In this document: one piece after another, positions 3,365-54,479 of the stretch
Position numbering within the stretch: the first letter of the stretch is position 1
Layout: each line of letters starts with the position of its first letter
Origin: Chlamydiales bacterium
GTDB taxonomy: Bacteria > Chlamydiota > Chlamydiia > Chlamydiales > SM23-39
Reading direction: 5' to 3'
Assembly (NCBI GenBank): GCA_035479435.1
Contig: DATIIR010000058.1
Coordinates: 1-56,042 of the forward strand
DNA length: 56,042 nucleotides
Notes under the pieces: model-generated
Seen by the model: the letters and a program-made list of their open reading frames with translations, nothing else
Told to the model about the DNA's origin: nothing
Database searches by the model: none
Program-made: the position numbers and the translations under genes

Positions 3365-4137
3365 TGGAAAATAGATACACACTCCGCATTTTGAGAGGCA
3401 CGACAGGCCACCAATATTGGGAGGAATTTGAATTTGAGCGCCACCCACAAGCGAATGTGATTTCGTCTCTCATGGAGATCCAAAAAAGGCCGATCACGAA
3501 AGAGGGAAAAACGACAACGCCTGTGGCTTGGGAATCGGGCTGTTTGGAAGAGGTGTGTGGTTCTTGTTCTATGCTTGTGAACGGAAAGCCGCGCCAGGCG
3601 TGTACCGCTCTCATCGAGACCTATTTGAAAGAGGCGGGACACAAACCGATTGTTTTGGCGCCATTTACGAAGTTCCCTCTGATCCGCGATCTCGTAGTGG
3701 ATCGGACATCGATGTTTGAGTCGCTGAAAAAGATCCGGGGATGGATCTCTGTCGACGGATATGAAGATAATGGGCAATTTGGCCCGCCGATTAGCCCCGA
3801 AGTGCAAGAGGCGATGTATGTTCTCTCCACTTGCATGACGTGTGGATGTTGCACCGAATCTTGCCCACAAGTGAACGCTAAATCGGACTTCATGGGCCCA
3901 GCTGCGATGTCGCAAGTGCGCTTTTTTGACGCGAATCCCACGGGAAAAATGGAGAAATCGGAGCGGATGCGAGTGGCCATGAGCGAAGAGGGCATCGCCG
4001 GCTGCGGCAATGCGCAAAACTGCGTCCGCGTCTGCCCAAAAGGAATTCCGCTGACCGAGTCGCTCGCCCTCATCGGCAGAGAGGCATCCAAGCAGGCCAT
4101 CAAAGACTTTCTCAGCCTGCCCGACGCTGAAAAGTAG
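3364..4137 (+). CDS. sdhB: Succinate dehydrogenase iron-sulfur subunit
   Basis: Cys clusters CxxxxCGSC, CMTCGCCTESCP and CxxCxxxCP. The start overlaps the sdhA stop (TAATG). Confidence 0.93.
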   Translation: MENRYTLRILRGTTGHQYWEEFEFERHPQANVISSLMEIQKRPITKEGKTTTPVAWESGCLEEVCGSCSMLVNGKPRQACTALIETYLKEAGHKPIVLAPFTKFPLIRDLVVDRTSMFESLKKIRGWISVDGYEDNGQFGPPISPEVQEAMYVLSTCMTCGCCTESCPQVNAKSDFMGPAAMSQVRFFDANPTGKMEKSERMRVAMSEEGIAGCGNAQNCVRVCPKGIPLTESLALIGREASKQAIKDFLSLPDAEK

Positions 4138-4320
4138 AAATTAATCTTGCGTTAAGAGAGAATTGTTCCTCTCTGTTGTTAGGGACACCCTGGGCACCCT
4201 ATGCCCCTCAACGATGTTCTCAGCTAGGGGATCACGACGCCAGACGCGACCCGAGCGGTCCCTCTGGGAAGCGGTCCCACCTATAAGAAAAAGGTTGACT
4301 GAGCTAGTGCCAGGACCCTT

Positions 4321-4893
4321 TCAACGGAGTTTTATCAACTCTGTCGCCTGTCTGTGGGGCTTCGCAATCCAAGAATCTAGGTCGAATTCTTCCATGTAAA
4401 GCCGCTTTACAATGGTCTCTTTCAGCTTCTGAATCAATGTGTTAGGACTTAAACTGTGAACTTTTAGGCGGGTTAGAAAGTCGCTGTGAGAGCGATCTTT
4501 TCTGTATTGCGGCCTCTTTTCGGGAAGGCGAAGGTGGGCCATGTTTTCTTCGGAGTAATCCCACAAAAACGAGGTGTGGTGGAGCCACCGGTCTTTCTTG
4601 ATGTACTGCGCGTTGCCTCCACATTTTTTCTCCCCGATGCAATAGTCGTTTTCTCTGAGGTGAAACTGGGGAATTTTCCAGGCGTCTCTGTAGAGATCTG
4701 CAGACCAGCGGAGGATCGGCTCGGGGAAGGGGGCGACGTCAATGTGTTCTTTAGCCATGATGAAGGTGATGAAGAGGGTGTTTTCGTCGACGATGACGGT
4801 GCCGCCGCCGCTAAAGCGCTTGATGATGGGGATCTGATCCCGTTCGACCGTGGGGAGATTGAGCAGCGCTTCTGGCTGACCAGAAATACCCAT
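4321..4893 (-). CDS. Lipoate-protein ligase (LplA/LipM) family protein. Coordinates are the minimal ATG ORF; the true N-terminus probably extends to about 5016-5031.
   Basis: FSGGGTVIVDENTLFITFI and KKCGGNAQY motifs. The same frame upstream of the ATG reads KIHLIHLNGVPIFEQLQLEEALLR, a typical N-terminus for the family, with no ATG/GTG/TTG available. Confidence 0.8.
   Translation of the reverse strand: MGISGQPEALLNLPTVERDQIPIIKRFSGGGTVIVDENTLFITFIMAKEHIDVAPFPEPILRWSADLYRDAWKIPQFHLRENDYCIGEKKCGGNAQYIKKDRWLHHTSFLWDYSEENMAHLRLPEKRPQYRKDRSHSDFLTRLKVHSLSPNTLIQKLKETIVKRLYMEEFDLDSWIAKPHRQATELIKLR
4395..4411. repeat. Iterated palindrome copy b
   Basis: TGTAAAGCCGCTTTACA lies inside the lplA-like ORF and is translated as IVKRLYM. 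Confidence 0.9.
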
Positions 4894-17174: not shown

Positions 17175-17252
17175 AGAGGAATAAATTCTATGTGAAGGGA
17201 ACGTTTTGAGCAAGGACAGAGCTTAATCAATCTTTTCTTGAGGGGGCTCAAA

Positions 17253-17269
17253 TGTAAAGCGGCTTTACA
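17253..17269. repeat. Iterated palindrome copy c (intergenic)
   Basis: TGTAAAGCGGCTTTACA; symmetry extends over 17252-17270. Confidence 0.9.
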
Positions 17270-17295
17270 TTAGAGGCCGCTACCGCCGATGCGCA

Positions 17296-21970: not shown

Positions 21971-22582
21971 CTATTGTTTGTGAATGTTTTGGTTCAATTG
22001 GATGACTTCCCGACGAAGCTCTTCCATCGAACCATTGTTATGAATGGTATAGCGGGCTTTGGCTGCTTTCTTTTCTGGCTTTAGCTGCCGATTCATGCGT
22101 AGATCGTATTCCGTTTTTGGGAATCCCGCTTGCTCAAAACGCTTCCTGGCTATTGCCTCATCAGCGAGCACCGCGATTGCCACATCGTAGAATTTGTCCG
22201 CTCCGATTTCGAAGAGCAGAGGGATCTCCACCACAAAGGATGAGTACCGATCTGCTCTGCACGCCGACACATAGAGCTCTTCGATCTTTTGGAGCACCGC
22301 AGGATGGAGCAACTCTTCTAATTTCTTGAGAGTGGCTGGATCCTTGAATGCCTTTTCAGCAACAATCCTACGGCTAATCTGTCCATTTTTTATGATTTCA
22401 TTGCCGAGTTGTCGGATGATTTGCTGACCAAGATCGGTGTCGGGCGTTAGAAGCTCATGGACAATCGCATCAGCATTGACCACGTAGGCTCCCAGTTCTT
22501 CAAAGAACCGACAAACGGACGTTTTTCCGCTTGCCACCCCACCTGTGATAGCAATTTTCCTTAAGCTTAACATTCGGCCCAA
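21971..22582 (-). CDS. coaE: Dephospho-CoA kinase
   Basis: [15 protein letters not shown]-loop; about 200 aa. Confidence 0.88.
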
Positions 22583-25284
22583 TTTTTGCCAACTGCGATA
22601 TGCACTTCAATCGGGACATTCAAGGTCATGACATGTTCCATTTTCTCCTTGACAATTGCCTCGAAAATAGCGATTTCGGAGTCGGGGATTTCAAAAATTA
22701 ATTCGTCGTGAATTTGCAGGATCATTTTTCCCTTTAAATTCCGTTCGCGCAAGACTCGGTCGATCTCGATCATGGCCATCTTGATCAGGTCGGCGGCGGT
22801 CCCCTGCAGCGGCGTGTTGATGGCCAGTCTCTCTGCCGCGGCGCGGATGCTCGGATTCTGGTTGTGGATCTCGGGGATGGGGCGCAATCTGCCGTTCAGG
22901 GTGGTGGTGGAGCCGCTCTTGCGCACGACGGCTTTACAATGCTCTAAGTAGCTAAGCACGCCCGGGTAGCGGGCAAAATAAGTCTTGATGAAGTCGGAGG
23001 CCTCGCGCATGGAGATCCCGAGCTGTTTAGAGAGGCCGAAGGCGCCTTGTCCATAGACAATGCCGAAGTTCACTGTTTTCGCTTGCGAGCGCATGGCCGG
23101 AGTGACTTCGGTTTCGGGGACGCCGAAGACGAGCGATGCGGTGTGAACGTGGATATCTCTGCCCGTCTTAAAGGCGCGGGTTAGCTCGGGGTCTTCGCTG
23201 AAATGGGCGAGGAGGCGCAGCTCGATTTGCGAGTAGTCGGCTCCGAGGAAACTGTGGCCCGCAGCGGGCTCGAAACAGGAGCGGATCTCCGAGTGGATCG
23301 GGATATTTTGCAGGTTGGGATCTTGGCACGAGAGCCTTCCCGTCGCGGCGACAGACTGATTGAACGTGCAGTGGATGCGCCCGGTAATGGGGTTGACGGC
23401 GTGGGGAAGGGCTTCGACGTAGGTGGAGCGGAGTTTTTCGAGCGTTCGGTATTCTAGAACGTGGCGCACAACTGGGTGTTCCTCTGCCAATTCTTCGAGG
23501 ACGTCGGCAGCAGTGGAGGTGGTTTTCGATTTGAGACCCAGTTTTTGGTAGAGCACTTCGCTCAGCTGCTTGGGCGAATTGAGATTGAACTCTTCGCCCA
23601 CCTCTTCAAAGATCGTGAATTTGGCCTTGGTGAGGTCGTGGACGAGTTTTTCTCCTTCGACTTTTAGCCTCTCTACGTCGAGATAAATGCCGGTTCGCTC
23701 CATTTCTGCCAGAATCGGCAGGAGGGGCAGCTCGATATCGTGGAGAATCGGGCCTAATTTCTTGGCGTGGAGCTCCTCTTGGAAAAGCTCTTTGAGCCTT
23801 GTCGTGTAGTCGATGTCTTCACAGCAGTATTCTTTTACTTTTTCAATCGGCACATCGCGCATCGAAATCTGGTTTTTCCCCTTGCCGATGAGGCTCTCGA
23901 TGGGGACCTTTACTTTTTTGAACTTTTCGAGAGCGAGATCGTCGAGATTGTGGCGGCGCGTTTGGGGATCGATGATATACGAGGCGAGAAGGGTGTCAAA
24001 GGCGATTTTTTTGACGGGGATGTTGAGGTTTTGCAGAATGTGGTAGTCGTATTTGAAGTTGTGCCCATAAAAACCACACGGAGCTGAGGCGAAAAAGTTT
24101 CGGAGGGCCTCGACGACTCTCTGTTTGCCGAGTTTGCCATTGAGCGGCACATACCAAGCTTCGCCCGGCTCCACGCAAAAGCTGATGCCGACCAGATGGG
24201 CGAGCATCGGGTTGATGTCGGTCGTCTCGGTGTCCACCCCCACCTCTTTTGCGCTCGCGAGTCGCTGCAAAAGTGTCCGTAAATCGGCCTCGTTATCGAC
24301 CAAATGATACTCGTGTTTATCCAAATGTAAAGCCGCTTTACATTTGCCAGGGGCCCCCAAAGACGCATCGTCTTTGGGGTTTTGTATTGCGGCTTTACAT
24401 TGCATTTTTACGGGAGAAGGGGCTGCTTTCGGTTCGCTTAACTCCCTCAAAAGGGAGTTGAATTTCATCTCTTGGAAGAAGTTGCCGAGCTTTTGTTTGT
24501 CGGACTCTTTGATGCGGTAAAATTCTACATCTTGGGGGATCTCGACGCGGGTGTGGAGTGTGGCGAGTTCGCGGCTCATCAGCGCCTCTTTCTGTTGCGT
24601 GCGGAGGATCTGCTGCTTCTTTTCCCCTTTGACCCGTTCGGGGTGGGCCAAGATGTTGTCGAGTGTGCCGAATTCCTGTAAGAGTGAGGCGGCTGTCTTG
24701 GGGCCGAAACCCTCCAGGCCGGGGATGTTGTCTGAGGCGTCGCCCATGATCGCGAGGAGGTCGAGCATCTGGTCGGGCCTCACGCCGAAGAGCTCTTTCA
24801 CTTTGGAGGCGTCGACGATGAGATTATCTTTGTGGAGCTGGAGCAGGAAAATCCGGTCGTTGACCAGCTGCATCAGGTCTTTGTCGCTCGAGCAGAGGAA
24901 GACTTTCGAGCCCTTTTTCTCAGCCCAGAGGGCCACCGATGCCATGGTGTCGTCCGCTTCAACTCCATCGACGCAGAGCGTGGAGATGCCGGCCATTTGG
25001 CAGTAGTTGTAGGCGAGATCGAATTGGGGAAAGAGGTCTTCAGGGGCTCCTTTGCGGTGCATTTTGTATTCGGCGTAGACAACTTGGCGCGACTTTTTGT
25101 TGTCGGGGCCGTCGAAAACGCAGACGAGGTGGTCAGCGGAGAAGTCGCGGATCAACTTCTGGACGGTGCGGATAAAGCCAAACAGGGCACTTGTCGACTG
25201 CCCCTTGTCGTTGAGCATGGGCCCAATAGCGTAATAGGAACGGAAAAGGTAATTGACGGCGTCTAAGATATAGATCTTATCCAC
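22567..25284 (-). CDS. polA: DNA polymerase I
   Basis: 5'-nuclease N-terminus, 3'-5' exo motif VGVDTETT, and polymerase motifs DYSQIELR and QIHDELIFE. Confidence 0.96.
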   Translation of the reverse strand: MDKIYILDAVNYLFRSYYAIGPMLNDKGQSTSALFGFIRTVQKLIRDFSADHLVCVFDGPDNKKSRQVVYAEYKMHRKGAPEDLFPQFDLAYNYCQMAGISTLCVDGVEADDTMASVALWAEKKGSKVFLCSSDKDLMQLVNDRIFLLQLHKDNLIVDASKVKELFGVRPDQMLDLLAIMGDASDNIPGLEGFGPKTAASLLQEFGTLDNILAHPERVKGEKKQQILRTQQKEALMSRELATLHTRVEIPQDVEFYRIKESDKQKLGNFFQEMKFNSLLRELSEPKAAPSPVKMQCKAAIQNPKDDASLGAPGKCKAALHLDKHEYHLVDNEADLRTLLQRLASAKEVGVDTETTDINPMLAHLVGISFCVEPGEAWYVPLNGKLGKQRVVEALRNFFASAPCGFYGHNFKYDYHILQNLNIPVKKIAFDTLLASYIIDPQTRRHNLDDLALEKFKKVKVPIESLIGKGKNQISMRDVPIEKVKEYCCEDIDYTTRLKELFQEELHAKKLGPILHDIELPLLPILAEMERTGIYLDVERLKVEGEKLVHDLTKAKFTIFEEVGEEFNLNSPKQLSEVLYQKLGLKSKTTSTAADVLEELAEEHPVVRHVLEYRTLEKLRSTYVEALPHAVNPITGRIHCTFNQSVAATGRLSCQDPNLQNIPIHSEIRSCFEPAAGHSFLGADYSQIELRLLAHFSEDPELTRAFKTGRDIHVHTASLVFGVPETEVTPAMRSQAKTVNFGIVYGQGAFGLSKQLGISMREASDFIKTYFARYPGVLSYLEHCKAVVRKSGSTTTLNGRLRPIPEIHNQNPSIRAAAERLAINTPLQGTAADLIKMAMIEIDRVLRERNLKGKMILQIHDELIFEIPDSEIAIFEAIVKEKMEHVMTLNVPIEVHIAVGKNWAEC
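24323..24402. repeat. Nested palindromic module inside the polA linker
   Basis: Contains AAATGTAAAGCCGCTTTACATTT (24323-24345), the hairpin CCCCAAAGACG-cat-CGTCTTTGGGG (24355-24379), and the degenerate copy TGTATTGCGGCTTTACA (24383-24399). Translated in frame as MQCKAAIQNPKDDASLGAPGKCKAALHL. Confidence 0.85.
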
Positions 25285-38718: not shown

Positions 38719-39879
38719 ATGAGCAACGCGACTTTAGAAAAGGCCCCAAAGAAAGTACTCTCCTCTCTGGTTCGAGAGGCGAGAGAGACCCTTCATCTCG
38801 AAAATATACCCGTCAAAGGCTACGAAAGGGTCGTCAAGGTGACGGACAAGAAGGCTGGACTCACGGGGATCATCGCCGTCCATAGCACGGTGCTGGGGCC
38901 CTCGCTCGGGGGGATCCGGATTCGGCCCTACCCCACATTCGACGCCGCCTTGGAAGACGTGTTGCGCCTCGCCAAAGGGATGACCTACAAAATGGCCGTC
39001 GCCGAAACGGGTCTTGGCGGGGGAAAGAGCGTGATCATCGCCGACCCTAAAAAGGAAAAAACCCCCGAATTGCTCATGGCGATGGGCGCCGCGATCGAAA
39101 GACTCGGAGGGAGCTACATTTGCGCTGAAGATATGGGTTGCACCATGGATGATGTGAAGATCGTTCGCCGTGCGACGAAGTATGTCGTAGGGCTCTCCCA
39201 CGCTAAGAGCAGCGGCGATCCTGGACTCTTCACAGCCTGGGGCACTTTTCGCGGGATTCAATCCATTGTAAAGCGGCTTTACATGACCGATTCCCTAGAG
39301 GGACGAAGGGTTGCAGTCCAAGGAATTGGCAATGTGGGAACCCCTCTCATCGACCACCTTTTTTGGGCTGGTGCCGAATTGATTCTCTCCGATATCGACG
39401 CGGCTAAATTGGACTACTATGCGACCAGATACAACGCGAAAAAGGTCTCTCCCGATCAGATTTTGAAAGTGGAGTGCGATGTGCTCTCTCCCTGCGCGGC
39501 GGGCGCCATCTTCAACGACCAGACGATTCCCCAATTGCGCTGCAGAGGGATCTCGGGATGTGCCAACAATCAGCTGCTCCGCGACGACCACGCGCGAGCG
39601 CTGAAAGACAGAGGCATCCTCTATGCGCCCGATTTCGTCGTCAGTGGCGGCGGAGTCATCAACGTCGCCGAGGAGCTCGAGGATGCGGGCTATAACCCCA
39701 CTACACCTCGCTACAAAGTACACCACATTTACGACACGCTTCAGGCCATCTACGAGATCGCCGACAAGAACAACGAATCGACCCATGAAGCCGCCGTCGC
39801 CTTGGCCGATTATCGACTCAAGTACGCGATTGGCAAGAGAGTTGTTCCCCCCACATTCCACCACAGCGCAGAATTCTAG
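38719..39879 (+). CDS. Glu/Leu/Phe/Val dehydrogenase family protein (leucine dehydrogenase-like)
   Basis: GPSLGGIRI, KMAVAETGLGGGK and VAVQGIGNVG motifs. Start chosen at MSNATLEK. Confidence 0.88.
   Translation: MSNATLEKAPKKVLSSLVREARETLHLENIPVKGYERVVKVTDKKAGLTGIIAVHSTVLGPSLGGIRIRPYPTFDAALEDVLRLAKGMTYKMAVAETGLGGGKSVIIADPKKEKTPELLMAMGAAIERLGGSYICAEDMGCTMDDVKIVRRATKYVVGLSHAKSSGDPGLFTAWGTFRGIQSIVKRLYMTDSLEGRRVAVQGIGNVGTPLIDHLFWAGAELILSDIDAAKLDYYATRYNAKKVSPDQILKVECDVLSPCAAGAIFNDQTIPQLRCRGISGCANNQLLRDDHARALKDRGILYAPDFVVSGGGVINVAEELEDAGYNPTTPRYKVHHIYDTLQAIYEIADKNNESTHEAAVALADYRLKYAIGKRVVPPTFHHSAEF
39267..39283. repeat. Iterated palindrome copy e
   Basis: TGTAAAGCGGCTTTACA inside the dehydrogenase ORF, translated as IVKRLYM. 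Confidence 0.9.
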
Positions 39880-47542: not shown

Positions 47543-48466
47543 TTATACGACATTGCGAGAAAATTGGACAGTTTTTCCACGCACGCTCAATTGATTCGGG
47601 AGAAGACCGTCTTGGATATGTGTAAAATAGAGACGCTTTTGTGGCATTTGCAGTGCAACCCAGCTCATCGTTTTGCGCGCATTGATCTCGACGATCGGAT
47701 GCACCCGCTTTTTTCCTTCCCACAGATAGATGAAACTGTCGATTCCCACGTAGCCTGAGTAGCCGAGCTTCGCAATCTTCTCAATCAACGGCTTTGCCAC
47801 TGCAAGATGTTCTTCCAGCGCCCATGTTTCGACACTGGCTTCAAACGTTCCTCTGTACGTGCCGTTGGGTTCATTTTCAAAAACAGTGACGCCTAAAAGG
47901 GCGCCATCCTTCCACTGCGTGCTGAAGTCTTGGAGCCTCTCCACCCACGGTTCTCCTATGAGAGGGCCAATGTAAAGCCGCTTTACATTGGGATTTAGGA
48001 CGTGGCCTCTACCTGCGGTTCCGAAGGGCGTTTTCAACACCTTTGGCCCCGGTGTCTTGGCAATCCATTGGGTGATTTCTTGGCCGGTTTCGAGCAGAGC
48101 GGCGCCGGGTAAGGGGGGCGATTCTGTGAAGGAGAAGATCTTTGAGTTCACTTTCTGGACCACATTCCATGGCGGGATAGTGTAGGGGATGTGATGGCTT
48201 TTGGCCCAGCGGGCGATCGCCTCGGAGGGGCCCCAGTGTTCGATGTGGGTGGTGCCTGGTGGGGGTTCAAGGCAGAGGCGAGGGTCTGGATCTCTGGGTA
48301 GGTCGGAGACCAAAATGGAGTCGTTGGGCCCGGCGTAGAGGAGAGGGAGAAATTGGAGCTGCATCACGACCGGATGGGAGCGGATCCACTCGGCCAACGG
48401 TTTTTTGTCTCTGGTTTCGAGCTCTTTTTCAAAAAAAGTATTGCAAATGTGGAGTGGCGACGACAT
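47543..48466 (-). CDS. ATP-grasp-like hypothetical protein
   Basis: The C-terminal half carries [13 protein letters not shown]...[10 protein letters not shown]...IVEINAR, an ATP-grasp-like Mg/ATP motif pattern. Confidence 0.65.
47967..47991. repeat. Iterated palindrome copy f (perfect 25-bp form)
   Basis: CCAATGTAAAGC-C-GCTTTACATTGG inside the ATP-grasp ORF, translated as PNVKRLYIG. Confidence 0.92.
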
Positions 48467-53731: not shown

Positions 53732-54041
53732 AAAACCTTAGCTTTCGTCCGACTATATCGAAATATCTACTTTTGACGCCAATCAAAAATTTTGAGAATA
53801 AGTATTTGATCATTAAATGTTTATAATGGGATTGCAGATATCCCAAAAATAGTTCGCTGAAATCGATGATTTCGTTTGATTTATAGTCGTTAATATGAAA
53901 TAATCATTACTTAAAGAACGAAAACTAAAATAAATACGAAATAACCGTATGATATTAAAAATGTAATTTATAGCCATACGGTAAGTAGTTAAAGATTAGC
54001 AATTAAATAGAATATGAATGAATTTTGAGGAGGAAGGAACC

Positions 54042-54479
54042 ATGGATTCAGACACAGCATGGAGCCAGACCCAGGGACAAAGTAATTCAGCGAAGGTGGT
54101 TTCGATCACTGAAGCCGCTCGAATTAACAATGTAACTCGGCAGGCCATCTATGTTGCTATCAAACAAAAGAAATTGAAAGCAACAAAAGACTCGACTCGT
54201 TGGACAATCCACCTGGACGATCTTGAAGAGTATCGAAATAACAAGTACTCGCGTACGAAATCGATGTACGACGGGGAACTTTTATTCGACAACAAAAAAG
54301 GTTACTATTCAGTTAATCAAGCCGCAAAAGTTTTGGGTGTACCCGCTCAAAAGATTTACTACGCGACACGCGTAGGTCTTTTAAAAGCGCATCGTAAAGG
54401 TGCTGCGTGGGTTATTCACACCGATGACATTAAAGGCTACCAAGAAAATTATCTGAATCGCAGACCCAAAGTTGGCTAG
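54042..54479 (+). CDS. euo: Tandem excisionase-type HTH DNA-binding protein, candidate Euo-like developmental regulator
   Basis: Two repeats of the pattern (V/Y)S(I/V)xxAAxxxxVxxQxIYxAxxxxxLKAxxxxxxWxIHxDD(L/I). Strong GAGGAGG RBS. The position next to tsp and gltX matches the chlamydial gltX-euo neighbourhood as I recall it. Confidence 0.6.
   Translation: MDSDTAWSQTQGQSNSAKVVSITEAARINNVTRQAIYVAIKQKKLKATKDSTRWTIHLDDLEEYRNNKYSRTKSMYDGELLFDNKKGYYSVNQAAKVLGVPAQKIYYATRVGLLKAHRKGAAWVIHTDDIKGYQENYLNRRPKVG

Follow-up and report, generated by a model that had tools for sequence, protein, structure and literature searches.

We analysed a 56,042-bp stretch of DNA (the window), which is the entire contig of a metagenome-assembled genome (MAG) labelled 'Chlamydiales bacterium', and focused on a composite of two palindromes and a hairpin that is translated within its DNA polymerase I gene, polA. 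The composite appears to be built in two layers. A 19-bp palindrome, here called P1, would be ancient, formed in place by base substitution and recognised by some factor; a P1-anchored terminator cassette of 57 nt would have been copied in later, or retained, at the existing palindrome; and the peptide that the two layers encode would be incidental. We consider this account probable, by a modest measure, and our best reading of the system as a whole is a mosaic that resembles repetitive extragenic palindromic (REP) sequences and bacterial interspersed mosaic elements (BIMEs), built on a palindrome that a protein recognises.

The polA gene (22567–25284, minus strand) is intact and encodes a 905-amino-acid protein with all three domains, according to the list of open reading frames (ORFs) and Pfam (5_3_exonuc_N, 5_3_exonuc, DNA_pol_A_exo1, and DNA_pol_A). 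The 5'-nuclease occupies residues 3–263, the 3'-5' exonuclease residues 326–505, and the polymerase residues 539–904. Translation of the segment from the minus strand gives M294–L321 (MQCKAAIQNPKDDASLGAPGKCKAALHL), in frame with PolA and located between the 5'-nuclease and 3'-5' exonuclease domains. P1 (24325–24343) is the perfect palindrome ATGTAAAGC-C-GCTTTACAT (in full, ATGTAAAGCSGCTTTACAT) and encodes C315–H320, CKAALH; perfect symmetry extends to 24322–24346 (CAAATGTAAAGC-C-GCTTTACATTTG on the plus strand). The hairpin at 24355–24379 (CCCCAAAGACG-cat-CGTCTTTGGGG) has an 11-bp stem and a 3-nt loop, with GGGG just before it and TT just after it. A variant palindrome, P2' (TTGTATTGCGGCTTTACAT, 24382–24400), encodes CKAAIQ and differs from P1 by A1T, A6T, and A7T; the two share 84% identity as a direct repeat and 89% complementarity as an inverted repeat. 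The spacer, GGGG, hairpin, TT, and P2' make up the 57-nt (19-codon) cassette (24344–24400), which is present or absent among close orthologues, so that the composite measures approximately 80 bp and the insertion/deletion (indel) 57 bp. A preliminary description of this DNA had located the palindrome, the hairpin, and the variant palindrome accurately and had assigned them to the correct reading frame and inter-domain position, but it regarded the hairpin as unrelated to the palindromes; the hairpin is instead a constant part of a recurring composite module, described below.

The 19-mer was found seven times in the window at three or fewer mismatches, against an expectation of 0.01, and the hairpin pattern occurred once in the window and in none of 100 shuffles. 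An 85-nt segment spanning these elements folded at −44.4 kcal/mol (z = −7.3) on the plus strand and −43.2 kcal/mol (z = −6.5) on the minus strand. Together, these values indicate that the features of the segment are not due to chance. An AlphaFold2 model of PolA, built on a 40-sequence alignment, had a mean pLDDT of 87, but residues 288–316 (codons at 24337–24423, minus strand) scored below 50. The cassette-encoded residues 296–314 are therefore predicted to lie in a disordered inter-domain tether, in agreement with the earlier suggestion of a structurally tolerant linker.

PolA from the window was compared with its 120 best relatives (121 sequences in total; relatives 65–87% identical, all from Chlamydiota-type MAGs and metagenomes) using a neighbor-joining (NJ) tree. 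In what follows, P#### labels denote PolA relatives and L### labels denote comparison DNA stretches, L133–L215 being IMG/VR contigs. Of the 121 sequences, 45 have the motif CKA[AV]L[HQY] exactly at the polA site and nine more have near-variants of it, and these CKAALH-type sequences together form one clade that reaches down to approximately 70% identity. The other PolA sequences carry a basic motif, KKGKRH or KKKARH, followed by the common T/L-D/E-K-H-x-Y-H-L-V-D. Judged from this distribution, P1 in polA is not a lineage-specific insertion but ancestral to the whole clade; it would have arisen once, in the clade ancestor, within a basic linker motif close to KKGKRH and been kept since.

Codon usage at the site was compared in the DNA of six orthologues and an outgroup. 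The P1 codons read TGT AAA GCN GCT TTA CAT across all six orthologues, the last codon being non-synonymously changed in two of them (TAT and CAA), and the outgroup reads AAA AAA GGG AAA CGG CAC. Synonymous variation within P1 was confined to the centre of the dyad, where G, A, C, and T were all found, whereas the flanking codons vary freely. Because synonymous sites are frozen everywhere except at the centre, it is the DNA, or its transcript, that is conserved rather than the peptide. The site also appears to be an indel hotspot: one relative (P0016) has a separate insertion of approximately 55 residues (RDPSEFVNFGGPQSGPDV...DRDVD) right after CKAALH, at the 3' edge of P1, and in P0008 and P0011 the hairpin peptide is duplicated (DASLG twice).

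P1 is a dispersed motif. A genome scan for exact matches to the 19-mer, using one genome per species, returned at least 113 genome tiles, nearly all from Chlamydiota MAGs (Parachlamydiales, 'Chlamydiia', Ca. Amphrikana, Ca. Algichlamydia, and some mislabelled Verrucomicrobia). The density of P1 is approximately one copy per 10–20 kb. The consensus is AAATGTAAAGCSGCTTTACATTT, and information content falls to zero outside AA-19mer-TT. Mismatches in variant copies cluster at the outermost base, which leaves a 17-bp core, TGTAAAGC-N-GCTTTACA. Of 121 chromosomal copies, 63 fall within predicted genes and 47 between genes, and the other 11 provide a gene with its stop codon (ATG TAA); since approximately 90% of the sequence is coding, this amounts to roughly 4-fold intergenic enrichment. 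P1 has two frames without a stop codon on either strand, CKAALH and VK[R/P]LY, and these are the ones that copies inside genes use.

Solo copies in two other genes reveal how P1 came to be in coding DNA. In leucine dehydrogenase (LeuDH), the P1-encoded VVKRLYM lines up gap-free with AAKKLFG, AVKKLYG, and TLKKIFG, the residues found at this place in more distant orthologues, and VKRLY is present in 58 of 120 LeuDH orthologues. In RecD, the counterpart of CKAALH in a gap-free alignment is KSRGGIH, and CKTALH and CKSALH occur as intermediates. The P1 copies in these genes replaced codons with no change in length and thus arose in place by substitution; in-frame insertion is impossible for a unit of 19 bp. 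The earlier view of P1 as an inserted unit is not supported by this comparison, in which its solo copies line up with ordinary residues of distant orthologues.

Variant copies of P1 are also informative about what is being read. Of the changes they contain, 167 break complementarity and five keep it. The 9-bp half-site showed no enrichment beyond decayed palindromes, and the central base showed no bias with respect to the direction of transcription (27:28, 13:11, and 14:11). The near lack of compensatory changes and the lack of half-site enrichment and of centre bias argue for a symmetric, sequence-specific reader. Most simply, P1 would be the site of a dimeric double-stranded DNA-binding protein with 8 + 1 + 8 geometry, with copies placed mainly at gene boundaries and, inside genes, generated by point substitution where the codons already resemble the CKAALH or VK[R/P]LY frame.

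Several other identities for P1 were considered and rejected. A generic requirement for any hairpin does not fit the near absence of compensatory changes in variant copies, and two independently working 9-mers do not fit a half-site that is not enriched beyond decayed palindromes. P1 contains TTTACA, which could act as a sigma-70 −35 element, but in phage-like contigs a −10 box at 16–18 bp was found in 1.1% of cases against a background of 2.6%; at chromosomal copies, a −10 box at sigma-70 spacing was weakly enriched (5.0% versus 1.2%). In polA itself, P1 TTTACA, a 16-nt spacer, and TATCAT give a 10/12 sigma-70-like promoter match (24304–24331, minus strand) that points into the Klenow-type part of the gene. 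This TATCAT consists of the Y-H codons of the conserved EYHLVD, and the match is probably due to chance. Among known chlamydial transcription factors, the consensus sequences given for Euo, HrcA (CIRCE), and PhoB sites in PMC4989314 are unlike P1, and PMC4652624 does not mention the motif. No paper containing the P1 DNA sequence or its peptides was found in the literature searched, which yielded background only on palindromic repeats in Chlamydiae.

The cassette has a different history. The closest orthologues, of 889 amino acids (P0002–P0005 and P0007), lack 'CKAAIQNPKDDASLGAPGK' yet have CKAALH, and at the DNA level P2', the hairpin, and the spacer are missing exactly in one polA relative (L115) and present in another (L114). 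The cassette is flanked by a 12- to 13-nt direct repeat, ATGTAAAGCSGC, that is common to P2' and P1. Twelve further loci, in other genomes and metagenomes, carry the composite P1–spacer–GGGGYCCC–hairpin–GGGG–TWTTGTATTGCSGCTTTACAT (L018, L035, L044, L049, L063, L080, L084, L108, L114, L119, L122, and L123), and the P2' variant is the same in nearly all modules. The modules in RecD (L063, +19 amino acids), an LplA-type gene (L035), and two further ORFs are in frame; in L123 (723–985), P1 precedes a tandem array between convergent genes, in which a 61-nt unit made up of spacer, hairpin, and P2' is present in four identical copies. Searching for further copies, as had been recommended, thus placed the cassette in a dispersed family that is read in frame in other genes as well. 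A scan of metagenomes for P2' gave 10 stretches, with seven solitary matches outside modules.

Within the PolA set, the cassette or a hairpin-only form is patchy, occurring in seven of 121 sequences: the cassette in the query, P0001, P0011, P0029, and P0034, and the hairpin alone in P0008 and P0019. The cassette is missing from the sequences that are sister to the query and to P0001. The window module is 76–93% identical to non-orthologous copies, compared with 73–77% between the polA flanks and those of orthologues, and its spacer is closer to that of L049 than to that of the orthologous L114 module. The scattered distribution on the tree and the L049-like spacer favour repeated acquisition of the cassette at a resident P1. 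It may have entered existing P1 sites as a copy, or been lost from them, by way of the 12- to 13-nt repeat, for which short-homology recombination, template switching, or slippage would be plausible routes.

These observations divide the proposal, made in the preliminary description, that a selfish element had inserted in frame in the manner of Rickettsia palindromic elements (RPEs). The proposal suits the 57-nt cassette, which is absent in the closest orthologues, and fails for P1, which occupies the polA site in 45 of 121 sequences; of the two layers, only the cassette would fit a selfish insertion. Likewise, of the 26–28 residues whose lineage specificity the description proposed to check, approximately 19 codons are patchy in the orthologue alignment and CKAALH is clade-wide. 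Orthologues with a homologous linker element, which the description had named as counter-evidence to insertion, exist for CKAALH and were not found for the 19-residue part.

The segment matched no family in Rfam, and the module had no similarity to GenBank phages or PLSDB plasmids. Compared with miniature inverted-repeat transposable elements, P1 and P2' behave as inverted ends, with 16 pairs between them, but the 12- to 13-nt direct repeat is part of P1 and not a separate duplication, and no insertion sequence partner was found. In L007 (approximately 2012–2130), the hairpin GGGGCCCCCAAAAACGGATCGTTTTTGGGG occurs alone, twice, each time after the apparent 3' end of a tRNA gene; standing alone there, the GC-clamped hairpin is a repeat unit in its own right. 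A different arrangement is seen in L003 (3619–3700), where P1 is followed by another hairpin (GTCCCCGA...TCGGGGAC) and a (GGACTC)n hexanucleotide run.

On the plus strand, the hairpin and the TTTTGTATTG that follows it (24355–24389) were called as an intrinsic terminator by a pattern scan, with an 11-bp GC-clamped stem, a 3-nt loop, and a T-rich tail; this strand is antisense to polA. The T tract follows the hairpin because P2' differs from P1 by its three A-to-T changes. The stem is kept across 13 modules, with three compensatory pairs. Eleven of the 13 modules fold better on the P1-to-P2' strand (summed energies, −476 versus −404 kcal/mol), since G.U is the pair seen most often at one position. 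The terminator strand is antisense to the gene in all six in-gene modules, which represent five independent loci. Of seven intergenic modules, four are sense after the 3' end of a gene, two are antisense, and one could not be assigned. A hypergeometric calculation from these module counts gave p of approximately 0.03–0.05, and the orientation fits a working terminator. The cassette and P1 would accordingly be read on one strand as P1–hairpin–T tract, a gene-end or terminator cassette, and a copy inside a gene would be tolerated only if its terminator strand is antisense, its length keeps the frame, and it falls in a permissive loop; all three hold for the polA linker. In L049, and possibly in L044, a gene stop appears to fall within the P1 of a sense module.

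P1 is shared with phage-like DNA. The exact 19-mer was present in 83 stretches of IMG/VR viral contigs, for which a rough chance expectation is less than one match, and each phage-like contig has several exact copies. Many of these contigs are 38–41 kb long, with GC contents of 0.32–0.47, and resemble tailed phages: L179 (39.7 kb) encodes an exonuclease, RecT, a tail fibre, and a major tail protein (PHROGs), L155 has a weak, sub-threshold Pfam capsid match, and an ORF of L149 is, as we take it by eye, a terminase large subunit. In the phage-like contigs, 66 of 91 P1 copies (73%) are intergenic, located at conserved junctions of apparently structural genes and often just after a GC hairpin and T run; 28 of 91 are followed within 40 nt by a ribosome-binding site and start codon, and some are paired 25 bp apart (L155 and L188). 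Neither the composite module nor the hairpin occurs in the P1-bearing phage-like contigs. L179, the one example searched, had no match in GenBank phages or PLSDB plasmids, and the protein clusters of the phage-like contigs gave no host assignment. These contigs may represent phages of environmental Chlamydiota.

Three other explanations were weighed. In the first, P1, the hairpin, and P2' are the mosaic units of a selfish repeat of the REP/BIME type, or of the type of REPINs (REP doublets), spread by an HUH/RAYT-type (REP-associated tyrosine transposase) or other transposase; effects would be exerted at the RNA level, with mRNA 3' ends stabilised or terminated, and copies within genes would be tolerated accidents. 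High copy number, palindromic units, intergenic enrichment of approximately 4-fold, and overlap with stop codons all speak for this explanation, as do the terminator-like strand and the mosaic or tandem forms (the 61-nt period of L123 and the lone hairpin after tRNA genes in L007). REPs have also been reported within replication and repair genes of other bacteria, repair genes being occasional hosts (PMC3733652). What makes this explanation unlikely, in our estimate, is the behaviour of P1 itself: a 19-bp unit cannot be inserted in frame, solo copies swap codons without changing length, orthologous sites are kept across deep divergence with their exact sequence preserved, and variant copies do not show compensatory changes. 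The GTAG/CGTC end tag is missing, and no transposase-like gene was seen between closely spaced P1 pairs at the loci examined. No RAYT was recognisable in the ORFs between close P1 pairs, which were judged by eye and not by profile search, or among the called genes of annotated regions, whole genomes not having been searched; by eye, those ORFs resemble terminase, exonuclease, LAGLIDADG endonuclease, and capsid-like proteins.

A drive like that behind uptake signal sequences (USS) and DNA uptake sequences (DUS), in which P1 is favoured by sequence-biased DNA uptake, recombination, or repair and accumulates by substitution in host and phage DNA alike, would explain the in-place origin and the use of two permissive frames, the conservation of orthologous sites, the similar density in phage-like contigs, and the copies in polA and recD. 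We regard it as improbable all the same, as P1 is a perfect dyad and not an asymmetric 9- to 12-mer, its half-site alone is not enriched, its density is approximately one per 10–20 kb and not one per kb, and 73% of phage copies are intergenic at conserved structural-gene junctions; we also know of no sequence-specific uptake of DNA in Chlamydiota. The last explanation is an ordinary variable linker, with CKAALH and DASLG kept for PolA function and the palindromes as by-products of coding. CKAALH is indeed conserved in many orthologues, but the freezing of synonymous sites except at the dyad centre, the reading of the same 19-mer in another frame elsewhere and its presence between genes and in phage contigs, the predicted disorder of the region, and the outgroup PolA proteins that lack CKAALH contradict a protein-level explanation and make this one highly implausible.

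Our preferred account, an ancient, recognised P1 with a later terminator cassette, has points against it too. It is weakest where it concerns what kind of factor reads P1, and which one, and how the cassette is copied. The putative trans-acting reader is deduced only from the symmetry and exactness of P1, and a reader of an RNA or single-stranded DNA hairpin would fit many of the same facts. The polA copy is not a clean same-length swap, as it differs from the outgroup motif by one codon and the linker around it varies in length. The NJ tree cannot separate gain of the cassette from precise loss by slippage between the direct repeats. Terminator activity is predicted from the pattern of the cassette, and the orientation rule comes from only five independent in-gene loci. 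Finally, the P1 census is biased, its tiles having been picked by exact match and confined to the matches listed.

Known systems offer partial parallels. RPEs are units of approximately 100–150 bp that are inserted whole. Like them, the cassette in polA, recD, and lplA is a palindromic repeat read in frame at permissive sites of essential genes in an obligate intracellular bacterium; unlike them, the conserved core here is a 19-bp motif made by substitution, only the 57- to 61-nt add-on is an indel, and the taxon differs. The cassette is RPE-like in its behaviour, and the P1 core lacks the insertion by which RPEs are defined. The REP/BIME/REPIN-RAYT systems of Proteobacteria share with P1 and its module the many short palindromic units, mosaics, tandem clusters, and preferred position after genes. 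They differ in that approximately half of the chromosomal copies here are in genes, the GTAG/CGTC tag is missing and no RAYT was seen, and the identical sequence is kept at orthologous sites and across many differently labelled MAGs and phage-like contigs.

P1 resembles the USS of Pasteurellaceae and DUS of Neisseriaceae as an exact, over-represented oligomer that is formed by substitution within coding DNA where the reading frame allows it, with orthologous conservation, association with terminators, and presence in phages, but it is a full 17- to 19-bp dyad and approximately 10 times sparser. Operator-type sites (mycobacteriophage stoperators, Noc and SlmA sites, and lambda-type 17-bp operators) share the 8 + 1 + 8 bp design, the free centre, and the many dispersed copies, and in phage contigs P1 is operator-like in occupying short intergenic gaps by gene starts, with pairs 25 bp apart. 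Stoperators are asymmetric and restricted to phages; P1 is, in addition, conserved inside host housekeeping genes, and its cognate protein is putative. The plus strand of the cassette matches Rho-independent terminators in its 11-bp GC-clamped stem, 3-nt loop, and T-rich tail, although the polA element lies within a gene in antisense orientation and is known from its sequence pattern. By analogy, the whole system would be closest to a REP/BIME mosaic combined with an operator-like dyad.

A bolder interpretation, which we put forward only tentatively, is that P1 is a recognition sequence new to the literature searched, common to a broad clade of environmental Chlamydiota and to tailed-phage-like contigs from what would be their phages, read by a dedicated dimeric factor, spread in coding DNA by directed substitution, and used as a docking point by a mobile terminator cassette. 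This would be a host-and-phage 'punctuation' or self-marking system without direct precedent. If true, a genome-wide system of cis elements has so far been overlooked in uncultured chlamydiae; it would mark gene ends, provide landing sites for a small terminator cassette in essential genes, and link chromosomes to a family of tailed-phage-like contigs, in a phylum for which, to our knowledge, only Microviridae phages are established. CKAALH and VK[R/P]LY would then recur in unrelated proteins because of a constraint on DNA and not on protein, and annotators should not take these recurrent peptides for protein motifs. For such phages, P1 could be a signature by which hosts are predicted, and it offers a concrete bait for its putative binding factor.

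Candidates for that factor are a tandem HTH_17 protein and a set of phage proteins that contain only sigma-70 region 4. The former, a candidate reader of dyad sites, is a 153-amino-acid protein with two tandem HTH_17 domains that is encoded in the window itself (54018–54479, plus strand); homologues are encoded by another chlamydial MAG (L062) and, at 33% identity, by a phage-like contig (L156). The latter are proteins of approximately 220–240 amino acids with Sigma70_r4 as their sole Pfam domain (L149, 533–1219, minus strand; L175, 8055–8780, plus strand; L193, 3922–4572, plus strand), and they are 42–51% identical to the C terminus of a host sigma-70/RpoD-like gene product that was identified by eye (L106, approximately 3600–4353). 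In L106, P1 immediately follows the stop codon of this host gene, and in L149 it immediately follows the phage gene.

The window has six copies of P1, of which five lie outside polA. At 242–260, its ATG TAA forms the stop of an ORF that enters from the left end of the window (...ENASRLFSM*) and that we take, from its appearance, to be TatD-like. The copy at 4394–4412, with one mismatch, is read as IVKRLYM in an LplA-type gene (4321–4893, minus strand; Pfam LplA-B_cat), and the orthologous site in L035 has the full module in place of a solo P1. The copy at 17252–17270 is intergenic. The remaining two are read in the VK[R/P]LY frame: VVKRLYM in LeuDH (39266–39284, one mismatch) and NVKRLYI in a hypothetical gene (47970–47988, within 47543–48466, minus strand), the latter site being kept in L025.

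Two syntenic relatives, L115 (18443–21187) and L130 (18364–21105), contain DnaB helicase genes with an intein that bears a LAGLIDADG endonuclease domain, and in L115 a Bro-N (phage antirepressor-type) gene adjoins the intein-bearing DnaB gene. Another assembly, GCA_964460525.1 (L127 and L128), encodes proteins identical to those of the window on shorter contigs (20.5 and 7.8 kb), which indicates that the same organism was assembled independently.

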